Shown in pieces: positions 26,614 to 49,811 of a DNA stretch of 64,000 nt. Both the position numbers and the translations under genes were made by a program. The notes under the pieces are model-generated. The model did no database searches. It was not told the origin of the DNA and saw only the letters and a list, made by a program, of their open reading frames with translations. Position 1 is the first letter of the stretch, and each line of letters begins with the position of its first letter. The stretch is taken from assembly GCA_034669045.1 (NCBI GenBank), contig JAXDOD010000102.1:12192-76191 (forward strand), given 5' to 3'. This DNA comes from Alphaproteobacteria bacterium (lineage in GTDB: Bacteria; Pseudomonadota; Alphaproteobacteria; Rhizobiales; Xanthobacteraceae).

Positions 26614-27483
26614 CTACAAACTTTTTACGATGCGATGGAGATAGCTCGCGTAGCTGCTCTTGCCGGGGGTCCTCAACAATGGGTCGATCTGATCAATCGT
26701 GACATAGCCTAGCCGTAGCGCAATCTCCTCAGGGCAGGAGATCTTCAGGCCTTGACGGCGCTCCAGGGTCGCCACGAATTCGGATGCTTCGAGAAGCGAG
26801 TCTATGGTGCCGGTATCGAGCCAGGCATAGCCGCGTCCCATCTGCTCGACGTGGAGGTCGCCGGCTTCGAGATAGCGGCGATTGACGTCGGTAATCTCCA
26901 GCTCACCCCGACCTGAAGGTTTCACTTCTGCAGCGTAGCGGACAACCGAATTGTCATAGAAGTAGAGCCCGGTGACTGCCCAGTTGGATTTCGGCTGGGC
27001 TGGTTTTTCCTCGATCGATATCGCTTTTCCAGAAGAATCGAATTCGACCACTCCGTAGCGTTTTGCATCGAGCACCTCATAAGCGAACAAGGTGGCCCCA
27101 GCCTGACGCTGTTTGGCTGAGTTCAGAAGCTCCGGCAGGCCGTGGCCATGAAAGATATTGTCGCCGAGGATGAGCGCACATCGGTCCGAGCCGATGAAGT
27201 CGCGTCCGATAATGAAGGCTTGGGCCAGACCTTCCGGCTGCGGTTGCGCTGCATAGCTGATCGACACGCCGAAATGCCGCCCGTCGCCTAATAGCGCTTG
27301 AAACAGAGCTTGGTCGTGTGGCGTCGTGATAACGAGGATGTCACGGATTTCAGCAAGCAACAGAACCGACAGAGGATAATAGATCATCGGCTTGTCGTAG
27401 ACCGGCAATAATTGCTTGGAAACGGCAACGGTGATCGGATATAGACGCGTGCCGCTCCCGCCCGCCAAAATAATCCCCTTCAT
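26614..27483 (-). CDS. rmlA: Glucose-1-phosphate thymidylyltransferase
   Basis: [18 protein letters not shown]...[17 protein letters not shown], with near-canonical RmlA sequence throughout. Confidence 0.95.
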
Positions 27484-28385
27484 GTAGGACTTCCCTGCAA
27501 TTCAAAGAGTTGTTCGAGACAGGTCTCAAGAGATTTCCGCCACATTGGCAGGCGTATCGCGAACACGCGGTCGAGCTTCGAACAATCGAGCCGTGAATTT
27601 TGGGGTCGGCGCGCCCGGGTAGGATATTCACTCGTTGAAATGGCATGCACGCGACAGGCTCGCCCGCGTTTTGCCGCCGACCACTCCATGATGGCGCTCG
27701 CGAAGCGGCACCACGTGGTCTCGCCCGATCCGGTCGCGTGATAGGTTCCGCACAGCGTCGAGCGGTCCGCCTTCTCGATCAACCTGTCGCCGACCGCCGC
27801 AATGGCAACAGCAAGATCGGCGGCAAACGTGGGAGCCCCCCATTGATCATCGACGACTTTGACCTCGTCGCGCTCGGCCGCCAGGCGCAACATCGTCTTG
27901 ACGAAGTTGTGGCCGTCCGGGCTGCACACCCAGCTCGTGCGCACGATCACATGATCGTTCGTTTCGGCGGCGACGGCCATTTCGCCGGCCAGCTTCGAAT
28001 GCCCGTAGACGCCAAGCGGCCCCGGCTCATCCGTTTCGACATAGGGCGAGGTCTTGGCGCCGTCGAAGACGTAGTCGGTCGAAATATGGATCAATGGGGC
28101 GGCCGCGGCGCGGGCCGCCGCAGCAACATGGCGCGCCCCGTCACGGTTGACCAGGAACGCCTGATCGGCATCGTCTTCCGCCTTGTCGACGGCCGTATAG
28201 GCCGCCGCGTTGATGACGAGGTCGGGATGGAATTGGGAAACCGCGGCCAGGACGGAATTTCGATCGGTGATGTCGACTTTTGAGCGGCCGGCGGCGGCGA
28301 CAACGGTTCCCCGCGCGCTATAGGTGCGGGCCAGCGCTTGGGCGACCTGCCCATTTTCTCCAATGATCAAGACTCGAGGCGTCAT
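27480..28385 (-). CDS. rmlD: dTDP-4-dehydrorhamnose reductase
   Basis: [18 protein letters not shown]..., [24 protein letters not shown] and YGHSKLAGE. The ATG at 28385 lies 4 nt after the rmlB stop. The longer track ORF (to 28571) runs antisense-free but inside rmlB. Confidence 0.9.
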
Positions 28386-28389
28386 TTTG

Positions 28390-29442
28390 TCAGACGTTGA
28401 TGAGGCCGAGGCGATCGCCGCTGTAGACGCTCTCGCGCAATGGTTGCCACCATGCCCGGTTCTCGAAATACCAGAGGACGGTCCTGCCCAGGCCAGTCTC
28501 GAAAGACTCCTGCGCGCTCCAGCCAAGTTCCCGTTCGATCTTGGAAGGATCGATCGCATAACGGCGATCATGACCAGGACGATCCGGCACGAACGTGATC
28601 AGCTCGCGGCGGCGGCCGGCACGCGGCACGAGTTCGTCCACCAGATCGCAGATCGTTTGCACGACCTCAAGATTGGTGCGTTCGCTGGAACCACCGACGT
28701 TGTATTTGTGCCCAATGCGGCCCTTGGTCAGGATGACCGCCAACGCCCGAACGTGGTCGTCGACATAGAGCCAGTCGCGGATATGTTGTCCATCGCCGTA
28801 GACCGGAAGCGCCTTTCCTTCGAGCGCGTTCAGAATGACCAGCGGAACAAGCTTTTCCGGAAAATGATAGGGCCCATAATTGTTGGAACAGTTGGAAATG
28901 ATTGTCGGCAGCCCGTAGGTCTCATACCAGGCGCTGACCAGATGATCGCTCGCAGCCTTGCTGGCGGAATAGGGAGATCTCGGACTATACGGCATCTCCT
29001 CATTGAACTGGCCCGTCGGTCCAAGCGACCCGTAGACCTCGTCGGTCGAAATATGAAGAAACTTGAATCGCTCGCGCGATGGGGGCGACAGGCGCGACCA
29101 ATATCCGCGAGCCGCCTCCAGCATCGTATGCGTGCCGAGCACGTTGGTCCGGACGAAGTCATCAGAGCCGCTGATCGAGCGATCGACATGGCTCTCGGCC
29201 GCAAGGTGCATGACCGCATCCGGGGCAAAGTCACGGAAGAGCGCGTCGAGAGCTGCTCGATCGCAGACGTCGGCGCGGGCGAAACGGTAATTCGCACTGT
29301 CCTTAAGGGAGTCGAGCGAGCGAAGATTCGCTGCGTAGGTCAGCTTGTCGACATTCAGGACCGTCCAGTACTCGGTCTGTACGAGATATCTGCAGACGGC
29401 TGATCCGATAAAGCCGGCTCCTCCCGTGACTAGGACGCGCAT
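28390..29442 (-). CDS. rmlB: dTDP-glucose 4,6-dehydratase
   Basis: [37 protein letters not shown] and [11 protein letters not shown]. Confidence 0.95.
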
Positions 29443-29462
29443 CTCTCAATCCAGGAATTGCT

Positions 29463-30023
29463 TCATTCGAAATAGACGCGAAGGTCTCGGAGTCTGGGCT
29501 GCGCTTTGTCTTTCTCCGATAATTGTGACGTCATCCCTGCCAGCGGCCACCTGATCCCGAGCTCCGGGTCGTTCCACAGAAGACCGAGATCGTTCTCGCG
29601 CGAGTAGTAATTGCTGACTTTGTACAAGACCTCCGTATCAGGTTCAAGGGTGCAGAACCCATGGGCGAAACCCAGAGGAATCAACAGTTGATGCCCGTTC
29701 TCCGCTGACAAATCCGCCGCGACGTGACGCCCGAACGAAGGCGAGGACCGGCGAATGTCGAGCGCGACGTCGAAGATCCGCCCGCGAACCACGCGCACAA
29801 GCTTGTCCTGGGCAAAGGGAGGCGACTGGAAATGCAGCCCCCTGACCGTGCCGACTTCGTTCGAAAGCGAATGATTTTCCTGGATGAAGGTCAAAAAGAT
29901 GCCGGCCGCTTCGAACTCGCTTTTCCGGTAGGTCTCGGAAAAAAATCCACGATTGTCGCGGACTCTCGACGGCTTGATGAGCTTGACAGACGGAATTTCC
30001 AGCGAATCAATTTGGATCGGCAT
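29463..30023 (-). CDS. rmlC: dTDP-4-dehydrorhamnose 3,5-epimerase
   Basis: [37 protein letters not shown] and GFAHGF. Confidence 0.95.
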
Positions 30024-30336: not shown

Positions 30337-33300
30337 GTGGCCGCGAAGCCAAAAATAGGCGCAGGGTTCAAGGCGAGACCGAAGGCGGCCCCCCGGGCCG
30401 GGTCGCGGACCTGCGTCATCGTCGCCGGCATGCATCGATCCGGCACATCCGCCGTCGCACGGGTCGTGAACCTCCTGGGCGCCGATATCGCGCGCGACCT
30501 GTGGCCTGCATCTCCCGGCGACAATGACCTGGGTTTCTGGGAGGCGACCAGGGTCATCGAGATTCACGAAGCGCTGCTGGCCGCGATCGGCAGCAGCTAC
30601 GACGATCCACTGCCGCTCTCCCGCAACTGGATCAAGACCACCGCGGCCCGCAAAGCCAAGCGCCAGATCGCCGATCACATCGAACAGGAATTCCGCACCA
30701 GCCGCGCGTTCGTCGTGAAGGATCCGCGCATCACCCGACTGCTGCCCTTGTGGCTCGAAGTCCTGGACGGTCTCAACATCGAGGCGAAAATCGTCATCCC
30801 CTTGCGCAACCCTCTCGAGGTCGCCGAATCGCTGCGCAGGCGAAATGCCTTCGCCCACGACAAGTCGCTGCTGATGTATGCCGACGCCAACCTGGCCACC
30901 GAGTTTGCAAGCCGCGGCCGTGATCGAATCTTCGTTTCATACAAAGCGCTCCTGACCGACTGGCGGCCGTTTGCCGGCAAGCTCATGACGATTGTCGGCC
31001 TGCGGCCGCGCCGGAACCATGAGACTGCGATCAAGGCATTCCTGACCAACGACCTGCATCGCAACCGGTATACGCACGACGACCTTGCCCGCCTGACGGG
31101 CGTGGGACGCATGGCGGTCGAGATTTTTGATCGTATGACCGAGGCTGCTCGCTCGGGCGAGAAACCCGCGCTGCAAGAGTCATTCGATGCCCTGCGTTCG
31201 ACGCTGATGGAAGGTTCGACGCTGTTCAAAGGCCTGATGCACGCGGACACCAAAAAGGCCCGGGACATGGAAACCGACCTTCGCGCCGAAATCGGAAGGC
31301 TGGTCGTCGACCGTGACGCGCAACGCACCCAGTTCGAAGCTGCGAGAGCCGAAGCCGCCGCCGCCCGAACAGGACACGAGACCCTCGCGAAGGACCGTGA
31401 CGCGTTCCTCGCCGAACGCGCGACCATCCTCAAGGAGCGCGAGGCCTTCATCAAGGAACGCGACTTCATCCTCAAGGAGCGCGATGCGTTCCTGGCCGAG
31501 CGCGACGCCTTGATCAAGCAACATCAGGCGGTCGAACGCGCCCACGAAGCCCTGACCAAGGAGCGCGGCGCTTTTCTCAAGGAGCGCAGCGTTCTCTTGA
31601 AGCAACAAGACGCGTTCCTCGCCGAACGCAGCACGATGTTGCAGGACCACAAAACATTTCTGACCGAGCGGGACGCCATCCTCAAGGAGCGGGATGCCGT
31701 GCTCAAAGAGTACGATACCTTCGCACGAGCTCACGCCGGCTTTGTCACCGAGCGCAAGACGCTGTTCAAGGAGCGGGATGCGCTTCTGGCAGAGCGCGAT
31801 GTCATTCTCGAAGAACACAAGGCCTTTCGCGCCGAGCGCACATCGATGCTCAAGGAGCACGACAAGTTCCTTGCCGAGCGCGACGCCATCCTCAAGGAAC
31901 GCGATGCCGTGATGGCCGAGCGCGACGTGTTCCTAAACGAGCGCAAGACGCTGTTCAAGGAACGGGACGCGCTTGTGGCCGAGCGCGACGTCGTCCTTGA
32001 TGAACACAAGGCGTTCCGCGCCGAGCGTGACTCGATGCTCAAGGAGCATGACAAGTTCCTGGCCGAGCGCGACGTCATTCTCGAAGAACACAGGGCGTTC
32101 CTCGCCGAGCGCAACTCCATGCTGAAGGAGCACGACAAATTCCTCGCCGAGCGCGAGGCCATCCTCAAAGAACGCAATGCCGTCATGGCCGAGCGCGACG
32201 TGTTCCAATCGGAGCGCAAGACGCTGTTCAAGGAGCGGGGTGCGCTTCTGGCCGAGCGCGATGTCATTCTCGAAGAACACAAGGCGTTCCTCGCCGAGCG
32301 CAGCTCGATGCTGAAGGAGCACGACAAGTTCCTCGCCGAGCGCGACGCCATCCTCAAGGAACGCAATGCCGTCATGGCCGAGCACGACGTGTTCCAATCG
32401 GAGCGCAAGACGCTGTTCAAGGAACGGGACGCGCTTGTGGCGGAGCGCGATGTCATTCTCGAAGAACACAAGGCGTTTCTCGCCGAGCGCAGCTCGATGC
32501 TCAAGGAGCACGACAAGTTCCTCGCCGAGCGCGACGCCATCCTCAAGGAACGGGATGCCTTCATCGCCGAGCGCGATGTTTTCATGAACGAACGCAAGAC
32601 GCTCTTCGAGGAGCGCGATGCCGTGCTCGGGCAGCACACGGCATTTCTGGTCGAGCGTGATGCAATCCTGAAAGAGCACGCCACCTTCTCCGCCGAGCGC
32701 GACGCCATCCTCAAGGAACGGGACGCCTTCCTGGCCGAGCGCCACGTCATTCTCAACGAGCGCAAGACCTTTCTCACCGAGCGCGACTCGATGTTCCAGG
32801 AGCATGACAGGTTCCGCGCCGAGCGCGACGGCATCCTCAAGGAGCGCGATGCCTTCTTGGCCGAGCGGGGGGTCTTCCAATCCGAGCGCAAGACGCTCTT
32901 CAAGGAAAGGGACGCGATTCTGGCGGAGCGCCATCACATTCTCGGCGAACACAAGACCTTCCTCGCCGAGCGCGATTGCATGCTGAAGGAGCACGACAAG
33001 TTTCTCTCCGAGCGGGACGCCATCCTCAGGGAACGCGATGCCTTGATCAAGCAATACGAGGCAGCCGGACAGGCGCGCGCCAGCCTCGTCGAGGAACGCA
33101 AGGTCCTCCTTGAGGAGCGCAAGACCCTGTTCAAAGAACGCGACGTCGCTCTCGCCGAGCGACAAGCGGTCCTCAAGCAATACAGCGATCAACGGGCAGA
33201 ATATGATGTCTTGCGAGAGACGCATCAGCTCATTGTCGCTGAGCGCGACACGCTTCAAAAGATGCAGCAGCTACTGATGGAGGCGCGGGCGGAACTTGAA

Positions 33301-33516
33301 AGCACGGCTGCAGCTTTGCGAGCGGAACAAGAAACCCTCGCGGCGGAAAGAAATCGGCTTCTGGACGAACGCGCGGTCTTGCATGCAGATGTTGAAGGGC
33401 TGCGCAAGGAGCGCAATGATCTCGAAGCCGAGCGCGATGCTCTGGTCCACGAGCGCGAAGAACGCCGCGGCTGGCCGATGACAGGCCTTCGCCGCAAGTT
33501 CGGGCGCGCTCAATGA
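30337..33516 (+). CDS. Sulfotransferase-domain protein fused to a 686-residue heptad-repeat helical rod (candidate glycan chain terminator / molecular ruler)
   Basis: N-terminal roughly 300 aa: VIVAGMHRSGTSAVARV (PAPS 5-prime phosphosulfate loop), VVKDPR and PLRNPLEVAESL (3-prime phosphate region). Residues 356-1041 form 98 consecutive heptads of consensus x-[FILVM]-[LFIM]-x-E-[RH]-[DKN]. The GTG start at 30337 is preceded by GGAAGGGAAG. Confidence 0.85.
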   Translation: MAAKPKIGAGFKARPKAAPRAGSRTCVIVAGMHRSGTSAVARVVNLLGADIARDLWPASPGDNDLGFWEATRVIEIHEALLAAIGSSYDDPLPLSRNWIKTTAARKAKRQIADHIEQEFRTSRAFVVKDPRITRLLPLWLEVLDGLNIEAKIVIPLRNPLEVAESLRRRNAFAHDKSLLMYADANLATEFASRGRDRIFVSYKALLTDWRPFAGKLMTIVGLRPRRNHETAIKAFLTNDLHRNRYTHDDLARLTGVGRMAVEIFDRMTEAARSGEKPALQESFDALRSTLMEGSTLFKGLMHADTKKARDMETDLRAEIGRLVVDRDAQRTQFEAARAEAAAARTGHETLAKDRDAFLAERATILKEREAFIKERDFILKERDAFLAERDALIKQHQAVERAHEALTKERGAFLKERSVLLKQQDAFLAERSTMLQDHKTFLTERDAILKERDAVLKEYDTFARAHAGFVTERKTLFKERDALLAERDVILEEHKAFRAERTSMLKEHDKFLAERDAILKERDAVMAERDVFLNERKTLFKERDALVAERDVVLDEHKAFRAERDSMLKEHDKFLAERDVILEEHRAFLAERNSMLKEHDKFLAEREAILKERNAVMAERDVFQSERKTLFKERGALLAERDVILEEHKAFLAERSSMLKEHDKFLAERDAILKERNAVMAEHDVFQSERKTLFKERDALVAERDVILEEHKAFLAERSSMLKEHDKFLAERDAILKERDAFIAERDVFMNERKTLFEERDAVLGQHTAFLVERDAILKEHATFSAERDAILKERDAFLAERHVILNERKTFLTERDSMFQEHDRFRAERDGILKERDAFLAERGVFQSERKTLFKERDAILAERHHILGEHKTFLAERDCMLKEHDKFLSERDAILRERDALIKQYEAAGQARASLVEERKVLLEERKTLFKERDVALAERQAVLKQYSDQRAEYDVLRETHQLIVAERDTLQKMQQLLMEARAELESTAAALRAEQETLAAERNRLLDERAVLHADVEGLRKERNDLEAERDALVHEREERRGWPMTGLRRKFGRAQ
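31402..33459 (+). repeat. Coding tandem array: 98 consecutive 21-nt (heptad) units with no register break
   Basis: I parsed the translation by hand. 355 N-terminal residues + 686 + an 18-residue tail = 1059 aa, which is consistent with the nt coordinates. Confidence 0.85.
31859..33181 (+). repeat. Higher-order 189-nt (9-heptad, 63-aa) repeats within the heptad array
   Basis: The anchor string (A/C)(C/T)GACAA(G/A)TT, encoding (E)HDKF, starts at 31859, 32048, 32132, 32321 and 32510. The related ATGACAGGTT starts at 32804, and ACGACAAG starts at 32993. Spacings are 189, 84, 189, 189, 294 and 189 nt. Copies 32132-32320 and 32321-32509 differ at roughly a dozen positions by manual alignment. Confidence 0.8.
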
Positions 33517-33631
33517 ACGGATGATTGTTGGCGGGAGCCGATTGCTTGCGCTGCAAAAAGCGGATTATAACCCATGTAAGTTCATCCTAGCTATTTCTTC
33601 CACGACGCCGGGACCACTCACACGATCAGCA

Positions 33632-34144
33632 ATGATGCCGCGCAAACACGATCCCAGCTTGAACTTGATGTCGGTGTCGGCACGAACGATCTCGGGGGAT
33701 GGACCATCGCCCAATCCCGGCAATCTGGCAAAGCCTGCCGGCAAACCGCCGACCGACACGCGATCTCACCTGTCGGCAGGCGGCCTGATGGTTGCGGCCG
33801 ATTTGCTCGCCACCTCGGCCGATCTGGGCCCGCAGGCGGACCCCGGTTCCGCACGGACAGCCGAGCACGAGGCGCTTCAGGCGCAAAAGGACAGGATCGA
33901 GCAGGACCTTCATGCAACACGACAGAAGCTTGCTGAGCTCACGCTCGAACACGAGACCCTGCTTCGAGTTTTCCGACAGCAGATAACGACGACGGCACGG
34001 ACGGTTCGCGAATTGACCAACGAGCGCAACGTCCTTCAGCACCATCTCGAAAACATTTTCAAATCGCCTTCGTGGCGGCTGACGGCACCTCTGCGGCTGG
34101 CCAAGGCCCAATTCAAACGCCTATGGGGATCTCAAGGCCGATGA
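33632..34144 (+). CDS. Hypothetical coiled-coil protein with conserved C-terminal SPSWRLTAPLR motif
   Basis: Low-complexity N-terminus, a coiled coil of roughly 70 aa (EHEALQAQKDRIEQDLHATRQKLAELTLEHETLL...), then FKSPSWRLTAPLRLAK. The start is uncertain (ATG at 33521 or 33632). Confidence 0.5.
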   Translation: MMPRKHDPSLNLMSVSARTISGDGPSPNPGNLAKPAGKPPTDTRSHLSAGGLMVAADLLATSADLGPQADPGSARTAEHEALQAQKDRIEQDLHATRQKLAELTLEHETLLRVFRQQITTTARTVRELTNERNVLQHHLENIFKSPSWRLTAPLRLAKAQFKRLWGSQGR

Positions 34145-34288: not shown

Positions 34289-37114
34289 ATGCTCGATAAT
34301 TCCACCAGAGATTCCTACCGGTCGCGCGACGAGCTATCCGTTGATTGCGCGCTGCTTGAGGAAAGCGAAATCTTCGACGCCGACGCCTACAGCGCCGCCA
34401 CCGGCATCGATCCGGCCAGTGCCGCCAAGCACTATCTGGCGGAGGGTTGGCTGCAAGGGCACGAGCCCTGCCCCGGCTTCGAGGGACGGTTTCTGTATCC
34501 ATATTATCGATCGGTTGGATTCAGCGGTTGCCCGGCAATGACGTACCTCACCCTGCGCGCCGCGGGGTGGCCGGTGTTTCCGAACCGGGCGGCAGTCGAG
34601 CATCTGGCTGAGTTCATCCGGTCGAACAATCTCTTCGATGCCGCCGCGTACCGTGCCCGTCTGGACGGCAGCGATCTGGACCCATTGTTTCATTACATCG
34701 TCGTTGGCGAACGAATGGGCCATGCTCCCAGCGCAGGCTTCGATGCCGCCTATTACGGCGAGCGTCACTTGGACGTCGCTCAGTCCGGGATGAGCTATCT
34801 CCAGCATTATGTGACGAGCGGCCGATCCGAAGGCCGGCCCTGTGTCAGTCTGGCGTCGCAACTCGAGTTTGATCGAACTCGCTTGCGACCTGACCGCAAG
34901 ACCGTCCTGCTCGTCAGCCACCAGGCATCGCGAACGGGCGCACCGATTCTCGCCTACAACATCGCGATGCACTTGGGTCAGAGATGCAATGTCGTCGCAT
35001 TGCTTCTCACGGGCGGCGATCTGGTCTATGCATTCGAGGCCTGTTGTGCTGCCGTCATCGGGCCCCTCCCCAGCCAGGACCTGCACCCTGTCGACGCCGA
35101 ATATCTCGTGCGGCGCATATTGGCGACCTATGATGTCTCGTTTGCGATCGTCAACAGCATCGAGTCCCGGTCCATATTGAGACCGTTGGCCTTTGCCCTG
35201 GTTCCCACCGTGACCTTGGTGCACGAGTTTCCCGCCCATCTCGGGGAAAAAGGCGAGATGGGCCGATCATTGGAGTGGGCGACCCAATCGGTCTTCTCCT
35301 CAAGCACGGTGCTATCATTACTCCGCGCGGAATATCCCAACATCGACAATTGGCCCGTGCACGTCCTCCCCCAAGGCCAATCGGCGCTGCCGTCGCCAGC
35401 ACACGCGCATGAACAGGACGGGGAGCAGCAATCCACGCGCAAGGCCATGCGTCCGGAAGGCTTCGAAGACGCCACTGTGGTGCTCGGATGTGGAACGATC
35501 TTCTTCCGCAAGGGCATCGATCTCTTCGTATCGTGCGCCGCGGCGACAGCGGCTATTCGCACGAAAAAGCCGGTGCGTTTCGTCTGGATTGGGAAGCGCC
35601 TGGACGAGGAAGACGACGGCGGTTATTTCGACCACATCTCGAATCTTATCGCCGCCGCGGGCGTTGCAGACCGAGTGGCCATCCTGGACGAAGTGGTTGA
35701 TTTGGAGCCGGCATATGCTTCAGCCGACGTGTTCTTTCTGAGCTCCCGGCGCGATGCCCTTCCAAACGTCGCCATCGATTCTGCCTTGCGGGGGCTACCG
35801 GTCATTTCTTTCGCAGATTCGGGCGGAGTGTCCGAGATCTTCGGCGCAGCCCCGGAAACCGCAATGAGTGTCGTGCCCGGCCCCGATGTCGAGGCGGCAG
35901 CGCGATTGATCGCCAAGCTGGCTGACGACGAAGCCTTGCGTCGCGATCTGGGCGACGCCACGCGGCGGATCGCAGCGGCGACCTTCGACATGGGCCGTTA
36001 TGTGCGGCAGATCGAACATCTGGGCGACGAAGCCAGAGAGATCATGCGTCAGCGCGGTGAGGATTTTGAAACAATTCGCCGCGACTCCATGTTCGACATG
36101 ATCGGGTTTCTCGGCCGCGAAGGTATGGAGACCACGCGGGACGAGGCAATCCGCCTGTTCCTCGGAAGAGCTGCCGCGCTTGGTACGTCGAGGATTCCAA
36201 CGGCGAATTTCTATTACCGCCGGCCATGCGCCGGATTTCATCCGCAGATTTACGCAGAAAAGAACGCGGACCGCTATGACACCGCCAAGATCAATCCGCT
36301 TGCGCATTTCATTCGGAGCGGCAAGCCGGAAGGGCCGTGGTATCATCAAGTCCTGCGGCCACCTAAATTCGACGAGATCACGGCGAGCGCGCCGAACCTG
36401 CGCATCGGGTTACACGCCCACTTTCACTACCCCGAACTTGCTGCCGGCTTGCTCGCGAAGCTGCTCGCGAATCGAGCGCGCTGCGACCTATTGTTGACGA
36501 CGAGCACGCCGGTGAAGGCCGAAACATTGCGCGCCGCCACAGCCGGTTATGAGGCGGGAAGCGTGACCATCCGCGTGGTCCCGAACCGCGGACGCGACAT
36601 CGGGCCTTTCCTGACCGCATTCGATGACGCCATCGAGGATTATGAGATCGTCGGCCATGTTCACAGCAAACGCAGCCTGTTTGCGGGCGGACTTCTGGGA
36701 GAGTCTTGGCGCGACTTTCTCTGGCAGAACCTCATCGGCGATCTATTCCCGATGTTGGATATCATCATCGGGCATTTCGAGGCGGACAAGACATTGGGGC
36801 TGGTATTTCCCGAAGACTTTCATCTTCCCGACTGGGACAAGAATCGTGCCATGGCTGAAAGGCTGGCACGACGAATGGGCATTCAAGCTTCGCTGCCGGC
36901 TTTTTTTGATTTTCCGGTCGGCACCATGTTCTGGGCGCGCGCCAAGGCTCTGCAACCGCTGTTCGATCTCAAGCTTGGCTGGAATGACTATCCGGAGGAA
37001 CCATTGCCGATCGATGGTACGCTCTTGCATGCCCTCGAGAGGCTTGTGCCGTTTGCGGCTCAGCACGCCGGCTATCGTTTCGCGACCACCCATCTCCCTG
37101 GCGTGACCTGGTGA
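34289..37114 (+). CDS. Multidomain glycosyltransferase: N-terminal repeat motifs + GT4-like domain + C-terminal rhamnan synthesis protein F (RgpF)-like domain
   Basis: GT4-like: VLLVSHQASRTGAPILAYNIA ... FLSSRRDALPNVAIDSALRGLPVI. RgpF-like: IGLHAHFHYPEL, VVPNRGRDIGPFL, VGHVHSKRS, WRDFLWQNLIG and FPVGTMFWARAKAL. The N-terminus has repeated FDAxAY...HY...G...EG motifs. Confidence 0.85.
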   Translation: MLDNSTRDSYRSRDELSVDCALLEESEIFDADAYSAATGIDPASAAKHYLAEGWLQGHEPCPGFEGRFLYPYYRSVGFSGCPAMTYLTLRAAGWPVFPNRAAVEHLAEFIRSNNLFDAAAYRARLDGSDLDPLFHYIVVGERMGHAPSAGFDAAYYGERHLDVAQSGMSYLQHYVTSGRSEGRPCVSLASQLEFDRTRLRPDRKTVLLVSHQASRTGAPILAYNIAMHLGQRCNVVALLLTGGDLVYAFEACCAAVIGPLPSQDLHPVDAEYLVRRILATYDVSFAIVNSIESRSILRPLAFALVPTVTLVHEFPAHLGEKGEMGRSLEWATQSVFSSSTVLSLLRAEYPNIDNWPVHVLPQGQSALPSPAHAHEQDGEQQSTRKAMRPEGFEDATVVLGCGTIFFRKGIDLFVSCAAATAAIRTKKPVRFVWIGKRLDEEDDGGYFDHISNLIAAAGVADRVAILDEVVDLEPAYASADVFFLSSRRDALPNVAIDSALRGLPVISFADSGGVSEIFGAAPETAMSVVPGPDVEAAARLIAKLADDEALRRDLGDATRRIAAATFDMGRYVRQIEHLGDEAREIMRQRGEDFETIRRDSMFDMIGFLGREGMETTRDEAIRLFLGRAAALGTSRIPTANFYYRRPCAGFHPQIYAEKNADRYDTAKINPLAHFIRSGKPEGPWYHQVLRPPKFDEITASAPNLRIGLHAHFHYPELAAGLLAKLLANRARCDLLLTTSTPVKAETLRAATAGYEAGSVTIRVVPNRGRDIGPFLTAFDDAIEDYEIVGHVHSKRSLFAGGLLGESWRDFLWQNLIGDLFPMLDIIIGHFEADKTLGLVFPEDFHLPDWDKNRAMAERLARRMGIQASLPAFFDFPVGTMFWARAKALQPLFDLKLGWNDYPEEPLPIDGTLLHALERLVPFAAQHAGYRFATTHLPGVTW

Positions 37115-40495: not shown

Positions 40496-41359
40496 TTGGG
40501 AAAGGAAGAGCGGAGGGTGGACGCCGTTCTCAAACCGAATACGCAGGTCATATCGCCCGTCGCGATATCCCACGCATGGCGGGCCCGCCGGGACATCATT
40601 GACGGTCTCAAACTCTGGCCGGTATGGACCGCGCTGGCCTGGCACGACATCCGCATCCGTTACATCCGCACGATGCTCGGCCCGCTCTGGATCACGGTGT
40701 CCATGGGCGTCACCGTTCTGGCGCTGGGACTGGTCTTCAGCGGCGTTTTCAAGACGCGGCTTAGCGAATACCTGCCGTTCCTCACGGCCGGCCTGTTGAT
40801 CTGGGGTTTCATCAGCAGCGTCCTGACTGAATCGGCGACCACGTTTTCCAACGCCGTGACGGTCATCCTGTCGATCTCAGCGCCCTATTCGATGCACATC
40901 TACCGTGCGGTGCTGCGGCAGCTCATCATCTTCGGCCACAACGTGCTCGTGTTCGCAGCCGTCGTGCTGTTCGTCGGCGTACCGGTGACGTCGGCAACGC
41001 TGCTGTTCATTCCCGGAATGCTGCTGATCACCATTGTCATGACCTGGATCAATCTTCTGGTCGCAATGGTCGGCTGCCGCTTCCGCGATCTCCAGCCGAT
41101 CATCGCTTCGGTCCTCCAGCTCGTGTTCTTCTTGACCCCGTTGATCTGGGACCGGGGCGTTCTGCCGGCTGGCGCGAGCCATGCGTGGATCGACGCCAAC
41201 CCGTTCTATCATCTGATCGAGATTGCGCGCGCACCTCTCCTGGGCAAGGTGCCAGGACAGCTAACGATTATCTATGTCATCGCTCTTGCGGTGGTCGGCT
41301 GGGGCCTGACCTACCTCGTGTTCATCCGATTCCGCCGGCGTATTCCTTACTGGCTGTAA
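40496..41359 (+). CDS. wzm: ABC-2 type polysaccharide export permease (Wzm/KpsM/TagG family)
   Basis: Six TM helices with an ABC-2 signature-like N-terminus (LWPVWTALAWHDIRIRYIRTMLGPLWI). The start is TTG at 40496 or, more likely, GTG at 40517, which is preceded by GGAAGAGCGGAGG. Confidence 0.85.
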   Translation: MGKEERRVDAVLKPNTQVISPVAISHAWRARRDIIDGLKLWPVWTALAWHDIRIRYIRTMLGPLWITVSMGVTVLALGLVFSGVFKTRLSEYLPFLTAGLLIWGFISSVLTESATTFSNAVTVILSISAPYSMHIYRAVLRQLIIFGHNVLVFAAVVLFVGVPVTSATLLFIPGMLLITIVMTWINLLVAMVGCRFRDLQPIIASVLQLVFFLTPLIWDRGVLPAGASHAWIDANPFYHLIEIARAPLLGKVPGQLTIIYVIALAVVGWGLTYLVFIRFRRRIPYWL

Positions 41360-41364
41360 CAGAC

Positions 41365-42171
41365 ATGTCATACATCCACCTGGACAGGGTTTCCGTCGAA
41401 ATTCCGATCTACAGCGGCCTGGACCGGTCGCTGAAGCTGAGCCTGTTCCGGTCGGCGGCGGATACGGGCCTGCTCCGGTCGGCCGGCGGCACCATTGGCC
41501 GCGACCGGCGCGATCGCATCGTCATCCGCGCACTCGATGAGATCACGCTGCAGATTTCCGACGGCGACCGGATCGCGCTGATCGGCCGCAACGGCGCGGG
41601 CAAGACCACGCTGCTGCGGGTGCTTGCCGATGTCATGGAGCCGGTGAGCGGCACGATCAAGATTTCCGGGCGCGTCTCGACTCTTTTCAACGTATCCGGT
41701 CTGATGGACCCCGAGCTGCCGGGCTACGACAACGTATTCTTCGCGGGCGGGCTCATCGGCATATCGCGCAGCCGGCTGAAGAAGCTGATGCCGGACATCG
41801 AGGCATTTGCGGAGCTCGGCGACTATCTTCGGATGCCGGTGCGAACCTATTCCGCGGGCATGATGATCCGGCTTGGCTTCGCGATCGCCACCTGCATCGA
41901 TCCGGATATCCTGCTGATGGACGAGGTCATCGGCGCCGGCGACACGCATTTCGTCGACAAGGCCATCCGGCGCGCGCAGGAACTTTACAAGCAATCCAAC
42001 ATTCTGATCGCTGCATCGCATTCCCCCACATTGCTCCAGGGGCTGTGCAACAAGGCGATCCTGCTGGAGGGTGGCAAAGTCGTCAGCATGGGGTCGTTCG
42101 AGTCCGTCACGAAATTCTATGAGGACAATCCCTGGTCGGCAGGGACCGCGCCCCAGCAAGCCGCCGAGTAG
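41365..42171 (+). CDS. wzt: ABC polysaccharide export ATP-binding protein (Wzt/KpsT/TagH family), NBD only
   Basis: Walker A GRNGAGKTTLL, signature YSAGMMIRLGF, Walker B ILLMDEV and H-loop AASHS. Its 268 aa leave no room for a C-terminal carbohydrate-binding domain. Confidence 0.9.
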   Translation: MSYIHLDRVSVEIPIYSGLDRSLKLSLFRSAADTGLLRSAGGTIGRDRRDRIVIRALDEITLQISDGDRIALIGRNGAGKTTLLRVLADVMEPVSGTIKISGRVSTLFNVSGLMDPELPGYDNVFFAGGLIGISRSRLKKLMPDIEAFAELGDYLRMPVRTYSAGMMIRLGFAIATCIDPDILLMDEVIGAGDTHFVDKAIRRAQELYKQSNILIAASHSPTLLQGLCNKAILLEGGKVVSMGSFESVTKFYEDNPWSAGTAPQQAAE

Positions 42172-42260: not shown

Positions 42261-43235
42261 ATGCCGCAGCGTCTCAATAAGGCCCCGTCAGGATCAGCCG
42301 CGCGCATGACTTCGATACAACAATTCACCGTCGACGATTTCCTGTCCGCGCTGGACATGCCGCCCGGTTCCGCCGCTCTGATCGCTCCGCAAGTGGCAAA
42401 GTACGATCTGAGCTATCGGCGCCTGGGCGTGGAGGAGCGCGCCGCGCTCGTTCGCGAGGTTCTTGCCCGCCTCGACTCCTTCAGCAAGGTCGGCGCTCAC
42501 CGATACCAGATCTGGGATCAATCATGGTCCGAGCTGGCGGGGCGCTTCGCGGCGAGCGGTGGCGCGCTCTCGTCGCTGGAGCCTTCATTCATCGGCGCAT
42601 CGCCGGTCGTTCGCCTCGGCGACGACTACGCGCGGCCGGCCGATCCGCGGTTCGAGCTCTACTGGTTCCGTATCCTTCGGCTTTGGCTGTTCAAGACCTA
42701 CCTGGCTGAGTTCGACCGCGTGCTCGAATTCGGGTGCGGCAGCGGCTACAACCTGGCCGCCCTGGCGGAGCTCTACCCGGAGAAGGAGTTGGTCGGCCTC
42801 GACTGGTCCGAAGCCGCGGTCGCGCTGGTCGGCCGCATCGGCGCAACCCAAGACCGCCGGCTGATCGGGCGGCAATTCGATTTCTTCGATCCCGATCCAT
42901 CTCTGGCGCTCGGGAAGACGTCCGCGGTCATGACCTTCGCGGCCCTCGAACAGACCGGCACCAGGTTCACGCGGTTCCTCGACTGGCTGCTGGAACGAAA
43001 GCCCGGCCTCGTCATCAATATGGAGCCGGCGCTCGAGCTCTACGACGCCGACCGCCCGTTCGACCAACTCGCGGTCCGCTATCACACCGGCCGGGACTAT
43101 CTCAGCGGCTATTTTCCCGGCATCCGGGAGCTTGCAAACGAAGGCAAGGCCCAGATACTAAAGCTGTTGAGGCCCCGGTTTGGAAGCCTCTATCACGAAG
43201 GCTATTCGCTTCTCATCTGGCGGCCGGTCGATTGA
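42261..43235 (+). CDS. Class I SAM-dependent methyltransferase
   Basis: Motif [16 protein letters not shown], then LVGLDWS and VMTFAALEQ. An alternative start is at 42306. Confidence 0.7.
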
Positions 43236-46011: not shown

Positions 46012-48549
46012 TTATGCGTGCGGGGACGTCACGCGGCGCACGACCGCCCGGATGGTGCGGGACAGGCCGAGCGTGCGGAAATGCGCATGGACCTGCGCAA
46101 ACGGCCGCGCCAGTCGGCGCAGAGGGCGGGTCATTTTTCGTCTGATCGATGCCAGCGCACCCAATTCGGTTGCGGCATGGACCAGCGTCTCGAATTGCGA
46201 CGCCGCTACTCGTTCGCTCGGACGCGAGCGCAAGAGTTCCAGGCGCCGGCGCAATTCCTCGGGATACAGATGCTCGAACCGCGCAACGGCAAGAAACCCA
46301 TCGATGGCATCGTCATACCAGGTCGGCGAGCCGGACGTCGTGACGCTTCCCAGCCGATACCACATCGTAAGCAGGTCCCTGATCGCGTCCTGCCGATCCG
46401 CCCGATCGAGCGCAGGAACGACCTGATAGAGCTCCGAGAGCAGAATCGTCGGATACCTTTCGGCACATTCGCTGAAGGCGCCCACGATCTCGTCGCCGAG
46501 TTGCCGATCCCAGCCCGGCGCCCGGGCCAGCCGGCACAGCAATCGCAATCGCGTCCGCATCAGCGGCACGTTGTCGGGAAAGATCGCAAGCGACTTCCGA
46601 TAGCGCTCAAGAGCCATGCCCGGAGCATCGCGACGTTCCGCCAAAAGGCCGAGATAGCCGTGCGCTGCGGCGAGGAGCGCTTGTGCAGGCCGCCGCGATC
46701 GATCGATGCCGTCTCCACCGACGCCCGAATTCCTCGTCACCTCGCCGGACAAAACGAGCTGGTTGTACTCATAATAGGGAAAGACCTGATCGCGCTGGTG
46801 GAGAGTCATCGGGAGTGCCACGTCGGAATCCGTCGGCGACAGGAAGAGCCCGTCGAATTCGTCGATCAGATCCTGGAACCGCCCGTCCGCGTCGGGATTG
46901 GGTTTGGTGCTCTCGAAAATGCGCCAATGCGCGGCATTGAAGCGAAGCAGCAGCGATTTCGGAAACCGGGTCAGGCCTTGGTTAAGGAGCGCATAGGCGC
47001 GCTGGCGCCGCGTGCGCGCTCGCCTGTCCCGGTAGAGCAGCGCCAGATGCATGTTGATGGCGGCAGCATTGTTGTAATCGCGGTCATCCCATGACGGAGC
47101 CGGCAGGAGCCCGCTTTCGTATCGCTCGACTTTTTCGCGCACGTGCTCGCGTTCGAACATGACCCTGTCGATCGGCGGCGTGATCCATACCGAGCGCGGA
47201 CGGACCTGAACGGCCTCGCGCGGGCCTGTGCTCGTCCGCGGTGCCCGCCAGACCAGGGCGGAAAACGCAGCCACCTTCAGAAGACGCTCCATGTTCTTTT
47301 CGCGCGAGACCTGCCGCGCCGAGAAGACGCGTTTCGTATGCTCGTGGATCGTCGCCGGGTGGTACGGCGAACCCGGTCCGGCCGCATGGTGCTTCTCGAT
47401 GTGCGAGGCGATATCCGCCGCAATCTCGGTCTCGCGGAACGGAAAGCAGCCCGCCCCGATATTGGCGTAGCCGGACCCCTCGGGATAGAGCACGCAACAG
47501 GAGTGCGCGAGCGCGTCGAGCCACCGCGGTGAAGGCTGGCCGCTGTAACGATTGACAATGGGCACGAAACGAGCCCGCGCCAGCAGATCGAAATACCGCG
47601 CCTCCGGAATGTGTCCATCGACGATATGAATGCGATAGCGGGGTGACAGCCCGGCAAGCTGATAGAGAAAACGAGGCTTTTCCGAATGGAGGACATTGAG
47701 GGCGGCCCCGGTGAACAGGACGTCGATGTCTTTGTCGAGCCGCAGTGTCGGCTCGGGGAACGGCATGCACATCGGTTCGGTCAACAGGCTGGACAGGCAT
47801 GGAGCGCCGAGGGCGTGCTGCAGCTCGAAATGCTCCTGCGAGGTGCACGTCAGGCGCACGTCATGGGCCGCGAGATTGTCCGCCGCGCGGGACAAGAACA
47901 CGTCGGTGTCGTGACACCACAGCACCCGCGGCACGGTCACCCGCTCGAAATTCTTCGGCAGCATCCACTGCGGCGTCTGTGAGAAAATGAAATCGGGCCG
48001 CTCCTGCGCCACGAGACCATCGAGGAATGCGTCAAAAGGATCGTTCAGGTCGTTCGGCCAGGCATTCCGGTCGAACTGAGTCGCGTAATGGCTGACCTTG
48101 AACTGCCCATAGCGATGGACCGGCTGGCGGACACTCTGGTCGCCTTTGGTAAAGATCGGCAGGACCGCGGCCGGGGTAATGACCCGGATTTCCCCCGCCA
48201 CGATCAGCCGGCGCAGACGCACGGCCATCTCGGCTTCCGGCGAATTCGGCGGAATGCTTGCGAGCGCCGAAAGAGCATCGGCCGTGCGCTCGGCCAGCCA
48301 CAGCGCGAACGCCTTGATCAGCGCCCCTCGCGCGGACAGCACGGGGAAGCCTTCCAGCCGCTCCAGGCCTTGGGTCACCAGCCCTGCCATCACGACCGCG
48401 CAGGCCCGCAGTTCGCTGTCCTGCGGGGCGGTCTCCGAAACCAGCATGAAATCGCCGGCGGCCCAGGCGTGCTCAGGCGTCGGATAGGTCGACCGTATTT
48501 CCGCAAAGGAAAACCTGGACCGAAATCGGGGAGCGATCCGGATCGACAT
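46012..48549 (-). CDS. Large hypothetical protein (845 aa), translationally coupled to the heptose-activation genes; possible glycosyltransferase/TPR-like scaffold
   Basis: Long ORF with gene-like codon usage. The ATG at 48547-48549 forms an ATGA overlap with the upstream stop. The central segment (VLWCHDTDV...DVLFTG...ARFVPIVNRY) vaguely resembles CgeB/GT1-type C-terminal domains. The C-terminal third is helical-repeat-like. I recognise no firm motif. Confidence 0.6.
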   Translation of the reverse strand: MSIRIAPRFRSRFSFAEIRSTYPTPEHAWAAGDFMLVSETAPQDSELRACAVVMAGLVTQGLERLEGFPVLSARGALIKAFALWLAERTADALSALASIPPNSPEAEMAVRLRRLIVAGEIRVITPAAVLPIFTKGDQSVRQPVHRYGQFKVSHYATQFDRNAWPNDLNDPFDAFLDGLVAQERPDFIFSQTPQWMLPKNFERVTVPRVLWCHDTDVFLSRAADNLAAHDVRLTCTSQEHFELQHALGAPCLSSLLTEPMCMPFPEPTLRLDKDIDVLFTGAALNVLHSEKPRFLYQLAGLSPRYRIHIVDGHIPEARYFDLLARARFVPIVNRYSGQPSPRWLDALAHSCCVLYPEGSGYANIGAGCFPFRETEIAADIASHIEKHHAAGPGSPYHPATIHEHTKRVFSARQVSREKNMERLLKVAAFSALVWRAPRTSTGPREAVQVRPRSVWITPPIDRVMFEREHVREKVERYESGLLPAPSWDDRDYNNAAAINMHLALLYRDRRARTRRQRAYALLNQGLTRFPKSLLLRFNAAHWRIFESTKPNPDADGRFQDLIDEFDGLFLSPTDSDVALPMTLHQRDQVFPYYEYNQLVLSGEVTRNSGVGGDGIDRSRRPAQALLAAAHGYLGLLAERRDAPGMALERYRKSLAIFPDNVPLMRTRLRLLCRLARAPGWDRQLGDEIVGAFSECAERYPTILLSELYQVVPALDRADRQDAIRDLLTMWYRLGSVTTSGSPTWYDDAIDGFLAVARFEHLYPEELRRRLELLRSRPSERVAASQFETLVHAATELGALASIRRKMTRPLRRLARPFAQVHAHFRTLGLSRTIRAVVRRVTSPHA

Positions 48550-49811
48550 CAGCGATCGCTTCCGATGTCGTCGGGCCACGGCGTCAAACCGGTCGTGACC
48601 CCCGCTGCGAAGCGCCTGAGATCGCCGCCCTGGAACAGATGGCCGCGCACACCTGCGCTGCTCGCAGCCGCGAGGTCGGTCGGCCGGTCGCCGATAAGGA
48701 AACTCTGTTCCCGGCGCACCGGCCAATGCGCCATCAGGTCCTGCAGCATTCCACAGCCGGGTTTGCGCCAATCCGATTCATGACGGTATTCGCCGACTGC
48801 AGCTTCCGGATGATATGGACAATAGCGAAACGCGTCGACATGCGCGCCGATCTTTCCCAGCTCCTCATTGATCCACTCGTGCAGCAGCATCACCTGCGCC
48901 TCGGGATAAAGCCCGCGCGCGACGCCGGCTTGGTTGGTCACGACGAAGACGAAAAAGCCGCCGTCGTTGAGCGACTTGATCGTCTCCTTCGCGCCCGCGA
49001 TCCATTTGAACTGGTCGGGCCGGTGCACCCAGCCATCGTCGATATTGAGCACGCCGTCGCGATCCAGGAAGGCGGCGGCGCGCGTCGTTCGCTCCGGAAG
49101 AATGAGCTGGGCGCAATCGAGGTCCTCCGGCATGCCAATGTCGATGAAAAAGCCGCCGAAGCGCTGGCCGAACACGGCCCCGCGTTCGGCGAGGCCCGGC
49201 AGCACGTCGCGTTCGAGCGAGCATGGTCCCTGCCCGATTCTGGGGCCGATCGTCTGCAGAATCTCGCGCCGGAGCCAATACACGCCGCCATTGATGAGGC
49301 CCGGACCGGCGCATTCCGGCCGCTCGGCAAAGCGCACGATGCGCGAGCCCTGCAAGGCTACCGTGCCGTAGCGGCTGGCGTCGGCGACCTCACGCAACGC
49401 AAGCTTGGCGATCCACGGGCCATCGGACGGACCACAGGCGAGGTCGAGCAGGTTGATGTCGAACAGGCTGTCGCCGTTGAGCAGCAGGAATTCCTCATCA
49501 AGCGCGCCGGCCGCATGAGCGAGCGCGCCGGCGGTGCCGGCCGGCTCAGGCTCCAGCACATGCGTGATCTCGAGCTCGATGTCGTGGGCGATGCGACAAT
49601 GTCGCGGAAAGCGCTCGACCAGTGCCTGCGAACGGTATCCGCAGAGCAGGATCACCCGGCGGAAACCATGCCGGCCGACCTCCCGCAGCAGGTAATCCAG
49701 GAACGGCCGCCCGGCGACGTCGACCATCGGCTTGGGCAGACCACGCGTGCGCTCGCCGAGCCGCGTGCCGAGGCCGCCGACCAGGATCACGCACTGCTTG
49801 GAACGGGCCAT
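48549..49811 (-). CDS. Fusion protein: sugar-1-phosphate nucleotidyltransferase (HddC-like) + D,D-heptose 1,7-bisphosphate phosphatase (GmhB, HAD)
   Basis: N-terminal: CVILVGGLGTRLGERTRGLPKPMV. C-terminal: AAFLDRDGVLN, VVTNQAGVARG, CPYHPE, RKPGCGML and FLIGDRPTDL (HAD/GmhB motifs). The start is ATG at 49811 or TTG at 49835. Confidence 0.85.
   Translation of the reverse strand: MARSKQCVILVGGLGTRLGERTRGLPKPMVDVAGRPFLDYLLREVGRHGFRRVILLCGYRSQALVERFPRHCRIAHDIELEITHVLEPEPAGTAGALAHAAGALDEEFLLLNGDSLFDINLLDLACGPSDGPWIAKLALREVADASRYGTVALQGSRIVRFAERPECAGPGLINGGVYWLRREILQTIGPRIGQGPCSLERDVLPGLAERGAVFGQRFGGFFIDIGMPEDLDCAQLILPERTTRAAAFLDRDGVLNIDDGWVHRPDQFKWIAGAKETIKSLNDGGFFVFVVTNQAGVARGLYPEAQVMLLHEWINEELGKIGAHVDAFRYCPYHPEAAVGEYRHESDWRKPGCGMLQDLMAHWPVRREQSFLIGDRPTDLAAASSAGVRGHLFQGGDLRRFAAGVTTGLTPWPDDIGSDR

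Follow-up and report, generated by a model that had tools for sequence, protein, structure and literature searches.

In-frame duplication of heptad blocks lengthened the predicted stalk of a sulfotransferase-head protein that may act as a ruler for sugar-chain length

In a stretch of 64,000 nucleotides (nt) from an alphaproteobacterium of the family Xanthobacteraceae (assembly GCA_034669045.1, contig JAXDOD010000102.1, positions 12,192 to 76,191 of the forward strand; the whole stretch is referred to here as the window) we found a gene predicted to encode a protein with a sulfotransferase-fold head at the N-terminus, a long helical stalk, or rod, built from repeats of seven amino acids (aa) called heptads, and a short tail at the C-terminus. 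The explanation that we favor, with a confidence somewhat above even, is that duplications of blocks of heptads approximately doubled the stalk of this protein and that the protein is a probable ruler for sugar-chain length. The parts of this explanation differ in strength: our confidence is high for the duplication history and for the evolution of stalk length in heptad quanta, and about even for the role as a ruler, which is drawn by analogy. The gene and its parts are as follows, where ORF denotes an open reading frame and AF2 denotes AlphaFold2.

30337..33516, plus strand: stalk-protein gene, 1059 aa, with a GTG start and a stop codon at 33514-33516 (ORF listing)
30337..31284, plus strand: sulfotransferase-fold head at the N-terminus, covering residues 1-316 and including the P-loop GMHRSGTS (weak Pfam matches, AF2, Foldseek and conserved columns)
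31285..33471, plus strand: rod formed by 104 successive heptads, covering 729 aa from residue 317 to residue 1045 (heptad print-out, position-specific composition and AF2)
33472..33513, plus strand: C-terminal tail GWPMTGLRRKFGRAQ (comparison with the relatives P0001, P0003, P0006, P0020 and P0044 and with a paralog in the same genome)

The heptad array is in frame with the N-terminal head, in the same ORF, and contains a higher-order repeat. The anchor HD[KR]F occurs at 31858, 32047, 32131, 32320, 32509, 32803 and 32992, with spacings of 189, 84, 189, 189, 294 and 189 nt, every one of which is divisible by 21. Tandem Repeats Finder (TRF) reported a period of 189 nt at 32059-32615 (2.9 copies, 91% matches, 0% insertions or deletions, hereafter indels) and again at 31749-32089 (1.8 copies, 86%), a period of 273 nt, or 13 heptads, at 31786-32370 (2.1 copies, 86%), and numerous further rows with periods of 21, 42 and 84 nt. 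Over the whole array, identity at a lag of 189 nt was the highest among in-frame lags (67% versus 57-60% for most others), and in 63-nt windows across 32104-32356 it rose to 94-98%, whereas other in-frame lags gave approximately 45-65%. The longest stretches that recur exactly within the array (50, 41, 33, 32, 30 and 29 nt) all lie at lags divisible by 21, whereas exact matches at other lags are no longer than 9 nt. We delimited the 189-nt units, called Ub to U8, by anchoring them on the heptad KEHDKFL.

31663..31851, plus strand: Ub, an older 189-nt unit, 71-75% identical to U1, U3 and U4
31852..32040, plus strand: U1, a 189-nt unit, 87-90% identical to U3 and U4 (also detected by TRF)
32041..32124, plus strand: partial unit of 84 nt, 4 heptads (lag-84 identity of 84% at 31978-32041; TRF periods of 84 and 273 nt)
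32125..32313, plus strand: U3, a 189-nt unit, 94.2% identical to U4
32314..32502, plus strand: U4, a 189-nt unit whose first 50 nt match 32503-32552 exactly
32503..32691, plus strand: U5, with approximately five U4-like heptads and the rest diverged (70% overall)
32797..32985, plus strand: U7, a diverged 189-nt unit, 79-83% identical to U1, U3 and U4
32986..33174, plus strand: U8, the last unit, with only its KEHDKFL SERDAIL start recognizable (60-67% over 189 nt)

These units agree well with an initial annotation of the window, which had proposed a nested 189-nt (9-heptad) period from anchor coordinates that are each 1 nt too high. Its statement that the 84- and 294-nt spacings are whole numbers of heptads follows from the divisibility of all spacings by 21, and its estimate of "about a dozen" differences between 32132-32320 and 32321-32509 compares with an exact count of 11 in 189 positions (94.2% identity). 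It had also pointed to two diverged copies further downstream. The copy at 32797 holds up over its length, with 79-83% identity to the core units, but the copy at 32986 does so only in its first heptads, with 60-67% overall.

The units differ in age. The 11 changes between U3 and U4 comprise 7 that are synonymous and 4 that are non-synonymous, giving a synonymous divergence (dS) of approximately 0.19 by the Nei-Gojobori method. With a dS this high, the U3/U4 duplication must be old and its copies were not homogenized later. By the same method, the ratio of non-synonymous to synonymous divergence (dN/dS) among units is 0.14-0.60; therefore, the units are translated, and purifying selection acts on them. 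The partial 84-nt unit repeats the final part of U1 together with the heptad KEHDKFL, and this accounts for the 273-nt period. Copy identities are graded (94, 88-90, 84, 80 and 72%), and these graded ages together with three block sizes (9, 4 and 13 heptads) require a minimum of four or five distinct duplications of whole heptads, each of which kept the reading frame and the heptad register. No copy of the 189-nt unit was found elsewhere in the 192-contig assembly, and no orphan contig carries it. We read the nesting of 21 nt within 189 nt as the record of repeated in-frame, whole-heptad tandem duplications that lengthened the stalk.

The gene has no close ortholog in the databases searched. 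The source assembly is similar to a metagenome-assembled genome (192 contigs, 98% complete, 6.8% estimated contamination). No ortholog was present in the genomes of 36 species from this genus, and the order yielded matches of only 31-36%. Searches of protein databases for proteins of both full-length and fragment size returned nothing above 57% identity to the head, and the matches from scans of genome contigs and metagenome contigs were all at or below 52%. The E-R-D type of heptad is common to only three relatives. One of these, P0001 (locus L017), is 684 aa long with 48 heptads. Another, P0122 (locus L026), has 42 heptads, which is the 48 of P0001 minus indels of 6 heptads. The third is a frameshifted gene in locus L024 that is approximately 710 aa long when read through and is followed, as in the window, by a gene encoding repeats of an FD motif, a GT4 glycosyltransferase domain and an RgpF domain. 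The rod in the window, with 104 heptads versus 42-53 in these nearest relatives, is approximately twice as long, and the excess of 50-60 heptads is close to the size of the block of 189-nt units (Ub to U8, 72 heptads).

The higher-order periods of the relatives are their own. L017 has a period of 168 nt and L024 one of 210 nt, and the paralog from the same genome (locus L006) has 6.7 copies with a period of 84 nt. Periods that are specific to a lineage indicate independent amplification and leave no structural reason for a length of 63 aa. A fixed structural super-period of 63 aa was therefore rejected, as relatives use units of 4, 8 and 10 heptads.

Changes of stalk length by whole heptads can be seen between close relatives. 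L017 and L026, which come from two sister samples, are 89% identical at the DNA level. Downstream of the 5' end of the gene, where small indels accompany different start calls, the sole indels between the two genes are of 84 nt and 42 nt. Both are in the repeat part of the rod and they sum to 6 heptads, or approximately 6 nm. We extended this to the family using 43 independent pairs whose heads share 78% identity or more. In these pairs 17 of 37 rod indels were divisible by 7 aa (7, 14, 21, 28 and 49 aa), against an expectation of one in seven (binomial p=4e-6), and part of the remaining rod indels add up to whole heptads, such as 23+40. Internal rod repeats with at least 60% identity at lags of 7-63 aa were present in 34 family members. 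By a crude measure, rod lengths in the family have a median of approximately 150 aa and a 95th percentile of approximately 415 aa, in a range of approximately 100-750 aa; the longest rod of the approximately 236 members sampled is that of the protein in the window (approximately 730-750 aa by this measure). From these comparisons of sequences we conclude with high confidence that stalk length in this family is an evolutionarily labile, heptad-quantized character, and that construction and remodeling of stalks from whole-heptad blocks is the rule among its members. We infer that length changes on evolutionary time scales and that the present array is fairly stable and not a switch.

Three further family members from metagenomes, P0013, P0028 and P0107, have 28-aa rod units that are 96-100% identical. 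These would be far better candidates for present-day variation in copy number than the array in the window.

The paralog in the same genome is encoded on the same contig, approximately 6 kb upstream of the start of the window (G000:C102:5545-6435; L006 268-2403, minus strand), so that one contig carries two stalked sulfotransferases. It is 711 aa long and combines a head of the same sulfotransferase type (33% identity) with a rod in which an 84-nt (28-aa) unit is present in approximately 6.7 copies of 87% identity, and with an intact SRSWRVTKPLR tail that is followed by a hydrophobic stretch. A GT2 gene adjoins it. In L024 (7001-11666 of ENA ERZ25039502 contig_48582) the stalk gene and the gene with FD repeats, GT4 and RgpF are each split into several frames, which reflect either pseudogenes or errors in the form of indels from long-read assembly. 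Read across the breaks, the stalk gene contains a higher-order repeat of 210 nt and has SRIWKLSAPLRKL as its end.

The head is shared with many other proteins. A protein search yielded 865 homologs at E ≤ 1e-3, many of which carry precomputed matches to PF13469. Across 35 homologs the motif GMHRSGTS is nearly invariant, with conserved columns at H33-S38, K128-R131 and R157-S165. An AF2 model of the head, built on 35 sequences, had a predicted local distance difference test score (pLDDT) of 91.2. When the PDB was searched with this model using Foldseek, the top 25 matches were sulfotransferases that bind 3'-phosphoadenosine 5'-phosphate (PAP) or its sulfated form, 3'-phosphoadenosine 5'-phosphosulfate (PAPS), with a probability of 1.0 and template modeling (TM) scores of 0.45-0.5; the matches include TPST1/2, cytosolic SULTs, and the sulfotransferase domains of CurM and OLS. 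A search of the PDB with the sequence of the N-terminal domain gave chance matches to designed helical proteins and nothing else. The genome encodes an adenosine 5'-phosphosulfate (APS) kinase domain (229.6 bits) within a 738-aa ORF on contig C130 and the organism can therefore make the PAPS donor. Based on the model, the head is predicted to have a PAPS-dependent sulfotransferase fold in which a P-loop-like 5'-phosphosulfate-binding motif is present. Several other matches were rejected. With the whole protein, Pfam returned GAGA_bind (61 bits) and, weakly, APG6_N and KASH_CCD, all attributable to composition or coiled-coil bias, and an NCBIfam match to FliH (20 bits versus a cut-off of 192) was spurious.

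The rod contains 0 prolines and 12 glycines, and its register is unbroken through all 104 heptads. The heptad consensus is (K/A)-E-(R/H)-(D/K)-(A/T/V)-(F/I/L/V/M)-(L/F). Position 6 is hydrophobic in 97% of heptads and position 7 in 86%, position 3 is Arg or His in 95%, and position 2 is Glu in 88%. Arg/His lies between the hydrophobic positions on the helix face. A coiled coil is predicted. Modeled alone from its single sequence with AF2, the rod was approximately 93% helix, with a pLDDT of 66 and a predicted TM score (pTM) of 0.23. A single-alpha-helix (ER/K) domain was considered for the rod and rejected, as 28% of its residues are hydrophobic and these form a strict stripe. On the opposite strand, ORFs of 280, 226, 390 and 441 aa overlie the rod (window 30675-33258, minus strand). 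These are shadow frames held open by the repetitive, GC-rich codon pattern and are not genes.

The stalk gene is the first of a run of genes on the plus strand: the stalk gene, a 207-aa ORF, a glycosyltransferase with GT4 and RgpF domains, an epimerase, two GT2 glycosyltransferases, the permease (Wzm) and ATPase (Wzt) of an ATP-binding cassette (ABC) exporter, a methyltransferase, and a dehydratase. The neighbors that bear on the function of the stalk protein are listed here.

26614..30023, minus strand: rmlA, rmlD, rmlB and rmlC for dTDP-rhamnose synthesis, divergent from the stalk gene (ORFs and Pfam)
33521..34144, plus strand: 207-aa ORF whose last approximately 80 residues correspond to a rod end plus SPSWRLTAPLR (36% identity to the C-terminus of P0001 by BLASTP, E=1e-7)
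34289..37114, plus strand: GT4 + RgpF glycosyltransferase, 941 aa (Pfam RgpF 2.5e-53 and Glycos_transf_1 9e-19)
40496..41359, plus strand: Wzm permease of the ABC exporter (Pfam ABC2_membrane; NCBIfam galactan_ABC_perm 5.8e-73)
41368..42171, plus strand: Wzt ATPase, 267 aa, lacking a carbohydrate-binding module (CBM) (Pfam ABC_tran only; full-length match to the CBM-less NF050108)
42261-43235, plus strand: methyltransferase, 324 aa, after Wzt and lacking a coiled coil

The GT4 + RgpF protein is probably a rhamnan polymerase, judged from its domains. The same divergent rmlD-rmlB-rmlC layout is found in L017, where RmlB is 75% and RmlC 73% identical to those of the window, and the window around the locus is rich in sugar-nucleotide genes. 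By its predicted gene content, this is an ABC-transporter-dependent locus of the rhamnan or O-antigen type. In the polysaccharide island, the ORFs at 8791-10890 (plus strand, 699 aa) and 46012-48771 (minus strand, 919 aa) had no Pfam match at E ≤ 1e-5.

The tail GWPMTGLRRKFGRAQ is short and basic, and it is a degenerate version of the SWRxTxPLR motif and basic tail found after the rod in relatives. The neighboring 207-aa ORF has a low-complexity, Pro-rich N-terminal half and had no match in Pfam or NCBIfam. It has no counterpart in L017 or L024, in which the intact motif stays on the rod protein. From its similarity to a rod end, this ORF may be a duplication of the 3' end of the stalk gene or a split anchor module. 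In many family members a motif of approximately 38 aa, FDxxWYxxxYPDV...P..HY...G..EGR.P, lies between the rod or SWRxTxPLR and the glycosyltransferase domains. The 941-aa GT4 + RgpF protein has three copies of it at its N-terminus (window 34289-34900, plus strand), and the homologs P0004, P0005, P0006, P0014, P0018 and P0020 carry it as well.

The proposal of a ruler is based on the resemblance of this architecture to that of WbdD and WbbB. An extended coiled coil is a hallmark of glycan-terminating enzymes in ABC-transporter pathways, and for WbdD of E. coli O9a and WbbB of K. pneumoniae O12 the function of the coil as a ruler is established (PMC11231755). Insertions into the coil of WbdD raise the modal chain length and truncations lower it (PMC5082667). 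Across homologs of the family studied here, the head is N-terminal and glycosyltransferase or methyltransferase modules are C-terminal of the rod. By analogy, the rod would keep the sulfotransferase head away from its membrane-proximal end, where the GT4-RgpF polymerase would be, so that sulfation would be limited to chains that extend as far as the head. Sulfated chains would probably be terminated, provided that sulfate masks the acceptor hydroxyl. With a rise of 0.148 nm per residue, each 63-aa unit would add approximately 9.3 nm and an extended rod would measure approximately 108 nm.

Several observations weigh against the favored explanation. The Pfam matches of the head are below the gathering score, with 19.0 bits for Sulfotransfer_3 (cut-off 27) and 16.3 bits for Sulfotransfer_1 (cut-off 22). 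The two hydrophobic positions of the heptad, 6 and 7, are adjacent and so depart from the canonical a/d spacing of 3 and 4 residues. Because the heptads are non-canonical, neither the oligomeric state nor the straightness of the predicted coiled coil is fixed by the sequence. The AF2 model of the rod monomer consists, with low confidence, of four antiparallel helices of approximately 25-29 nm. Its three breaks are at heptads that contain glycines, RAHAGFV, KERGALL and AERGVFQ, and the last two of these are inside younger units whose sister units have KERDALV and AERDVFQ, lacking the glycine, at the same place. This fold-back is probably an artefact of modeling one chain and we used it neither for nor against an extended rod. 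The rod protein ends in the degenerate GWPMTGLRRK, while the intact copy of the motif is on the separate small ORF. Finally, a Wzt with a C-terminal module that reads the cap, a hallmark of the WbdD and WbbB systems, is absent. Such a cap-binding module is present in Wzt of all characterized terminated systems (PMC11231755). Here the exporter has a CBM-less Wzt of the galactan-export type despite an operon that starts with a terminator-like stalk protein, and the only match to Wzt_C in the genome was a single one, below threshold, on another contig. With a Wzt that lacks the cap-binding module, one defining feature of the prototypes fails. The system may behave as a ruler yet fall outside the standard capped type, or the chain may be decorated by the sulfotransferase and not terminated by it.

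In an alternative explanation, the rod is a spacer or scaffold that only oligomerizes the sulfotransferase, docks it to the polymerase, or folds back, with sulfate placed along the chain and with repeat changes that are approximately neutral drift, of a kind to be tolerated in any helical filler. A CBM-less Wzt of the galactan type, as in uncapped systems, fits such a role, as do the four-helix fold-back of the AF2 monomer, the non-canonical heptads, the numerous short family members of 300-570 aa, and the wide span of rod lengths in the family (approximately 100-750 aa). However, the order of head, rod and polymerase is kept in hundreds of homologs, as it is in WbbB and K. pneumoniae O7 ORF6 (PMC11231755), and the register kept over 104 heptads together with whole-heptad indels (17 of 37) points to selection on a continuous supercoiled rod. 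A dN/dS below 1 is also at odds with neutral drift, and the AF2 breaks are at glycines that other copies of the same unit lack. We regard the spacer as doubtful, although far from negligible. Another concern is that the assembled copy number is wrong because identical extra units were collapsed or strain variants were merged. The assembly is fragmented, contamination is estimated at 6.8%, and short-read assembly is known to handle repeats poorly. Yet the longest exact repeat is 50 nt, with a mismatch between copies at intervals of 50 nt or less, and the assembled copies are thus resolved by k-mers of at least 55 or by reads of 150 nt. The intact reading frame and heptad register across 3.18 kb and the lack of an orphan contig with the unit also argue for a correct assembly, and copy divergence is graded as expected of a real history. 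An error of this kind seems to us highly improbable.

The array could also be an active length switch, in which frequent unequal exchange between 189-nt units produces subpopulations that differ in copy number and in glycan modal length. In E. coli, tandem direct repeats of less than 200 bp undergo RecA-independent template-switch deletions and expansions (PMC7145654). The array has exact in-register tracts of 50, 41, 33, 32, 30 and 29 nt, and any exchange event would be in frame because all of the homology stretches are in register. The initial annotation had likewise regarded the array as prone to recombination, with changes of approximately 9 nm per 63 residues, a figure that any alpha-helical rod would give (63 x 0.148 nm), and had suggested a comparison of orthologs. 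Run in the sister lineage, this comparison does reveal relatives that differ in heptad quanta (84 + 42 nt between L017 and L026, and 17 of 37 indels in the family). What frequent exchange should also do is homogenize the units, whereas even the best pair is just 94.2% identical, with a dS of approximately 0.19, other pairs are 70-90% identical, and there are no perfect units, in contrast to arrays that switch. Thus, the part of the earlier view that stands is that the array is the product of in-frame unequal exchange and a possible substrate for it; a currently unstable locus does not agree with the dS of approximately 0.19, an exact tract of at most 50 nt, and the absence of homogenization. 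We consider active switching very unlikely. A fuller version of the ruler, in which the doubling to approximately 108 nm sets an exceptionally long sulfate-capped rhamnan, gains and losses of 63 aa persist in populations as glycan classes approximately 9 nm apart, and sulfation is a previously uncharacterized terminating chemistry that works without a cap-reading Wzt, is somewhat less improbable than that but still one we would not expect to hold. The reading that we prefer remains the combined one, of a stalk approximately doubled by duplication of heptad blocks and probably serving as a ruler.

Coiled-coil rulers are an accepted means of length control for O-antigens and related glycans in ABC-transporter-dependent pathways. 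To our knowledge, few have been tested, all of them with methyl, phospho-methyl or Kdo (3-deoxy-D-manno-octulosonic acid) caps. A full-text literature search returned no paper connecting a sulfotransferase with a glycan terminator of the coiled-coil type, although a 2019 census of terminator chemistry, which was outside the search, may list such heads; in these searches no member of the sulfotransferase family was reported as tested. The locus in the window adds the longest-stalk member, in our sample, of a large uncharacterized family with sulfotransferase heads. It provides clear sequence evidence for how the length of a ruler could evolve, by whole-heptad tandem duplication that is independent in each lineage and with close relatives 2-4 heptads apart, and it pairs a terminator-like architecture with a CBM-less exporter. 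If the ruler logic is true, the repeat units are natural cassettes with which the dependence of glycan length on stalk length could be mapped and glycans of a set length engineered. Should it be false, the layout of head, stalk and polymerase is insufficient to infer a ruler.

Other proteins set a length or exchange repeats, among them the needle ruler YscP, the tape-measure proteins of phages, and the M protein of streptococci. These are unrelated proteins from other pathways in which in-frame internal repeats are gained or lost and length sets or reflects a dimension. Size variants of the streptococcal M protein, in contrast to the length changes seen here between relatives, arise within strains.

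Closer to the stalk protein is WbdD of E. coli O9a/O8 and K. pneumoniae O3/O5, which similarly has an N-terminal catalytic head, an extended coiled coil and a short C-terminal region, and in which the polymerase is a separate protein in an ABC-transporter-dependent locus. The head of WbdD is a methyltransferase/kinase, whereas here it has a predicted sulfotransferase fold. The rod of WbdD is approximately 20 nm long; here approximately 729 aa would span approximately 108 nm if extended, approximately five times as much. Unlike that of WbdD, the rod here has higher-order tandem repeats and non-canonical heptads, Wzt has no CBM, and the C-terminal region is a degenerate SWRxTxPLR tail. In WbbB of K. 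pneumoniae O12 and Raoultella terrigena, and in ORF6 of K. pneumoniae O7, the terminator, coiled coil and polymerase are in one polypeptide (PMC11231755). This order is shared by many homologs of the head described here, in which the coiled coil is fused to a C-terminal GT2 or GT4 domain, but in the window the polymerase (GT4+RgpF) is encoded by a separate gene. Termination here would be by sulfate and not by beta-Kdo or methyl-phosphate. The coiled-coil ruler/terminator is a known kind of protein, and what is specific to this locus is the extreme length of the rod, the 9-heptad unit with its clear duplication history, and the combination of a CBM-less exporter with a split-off tail module.

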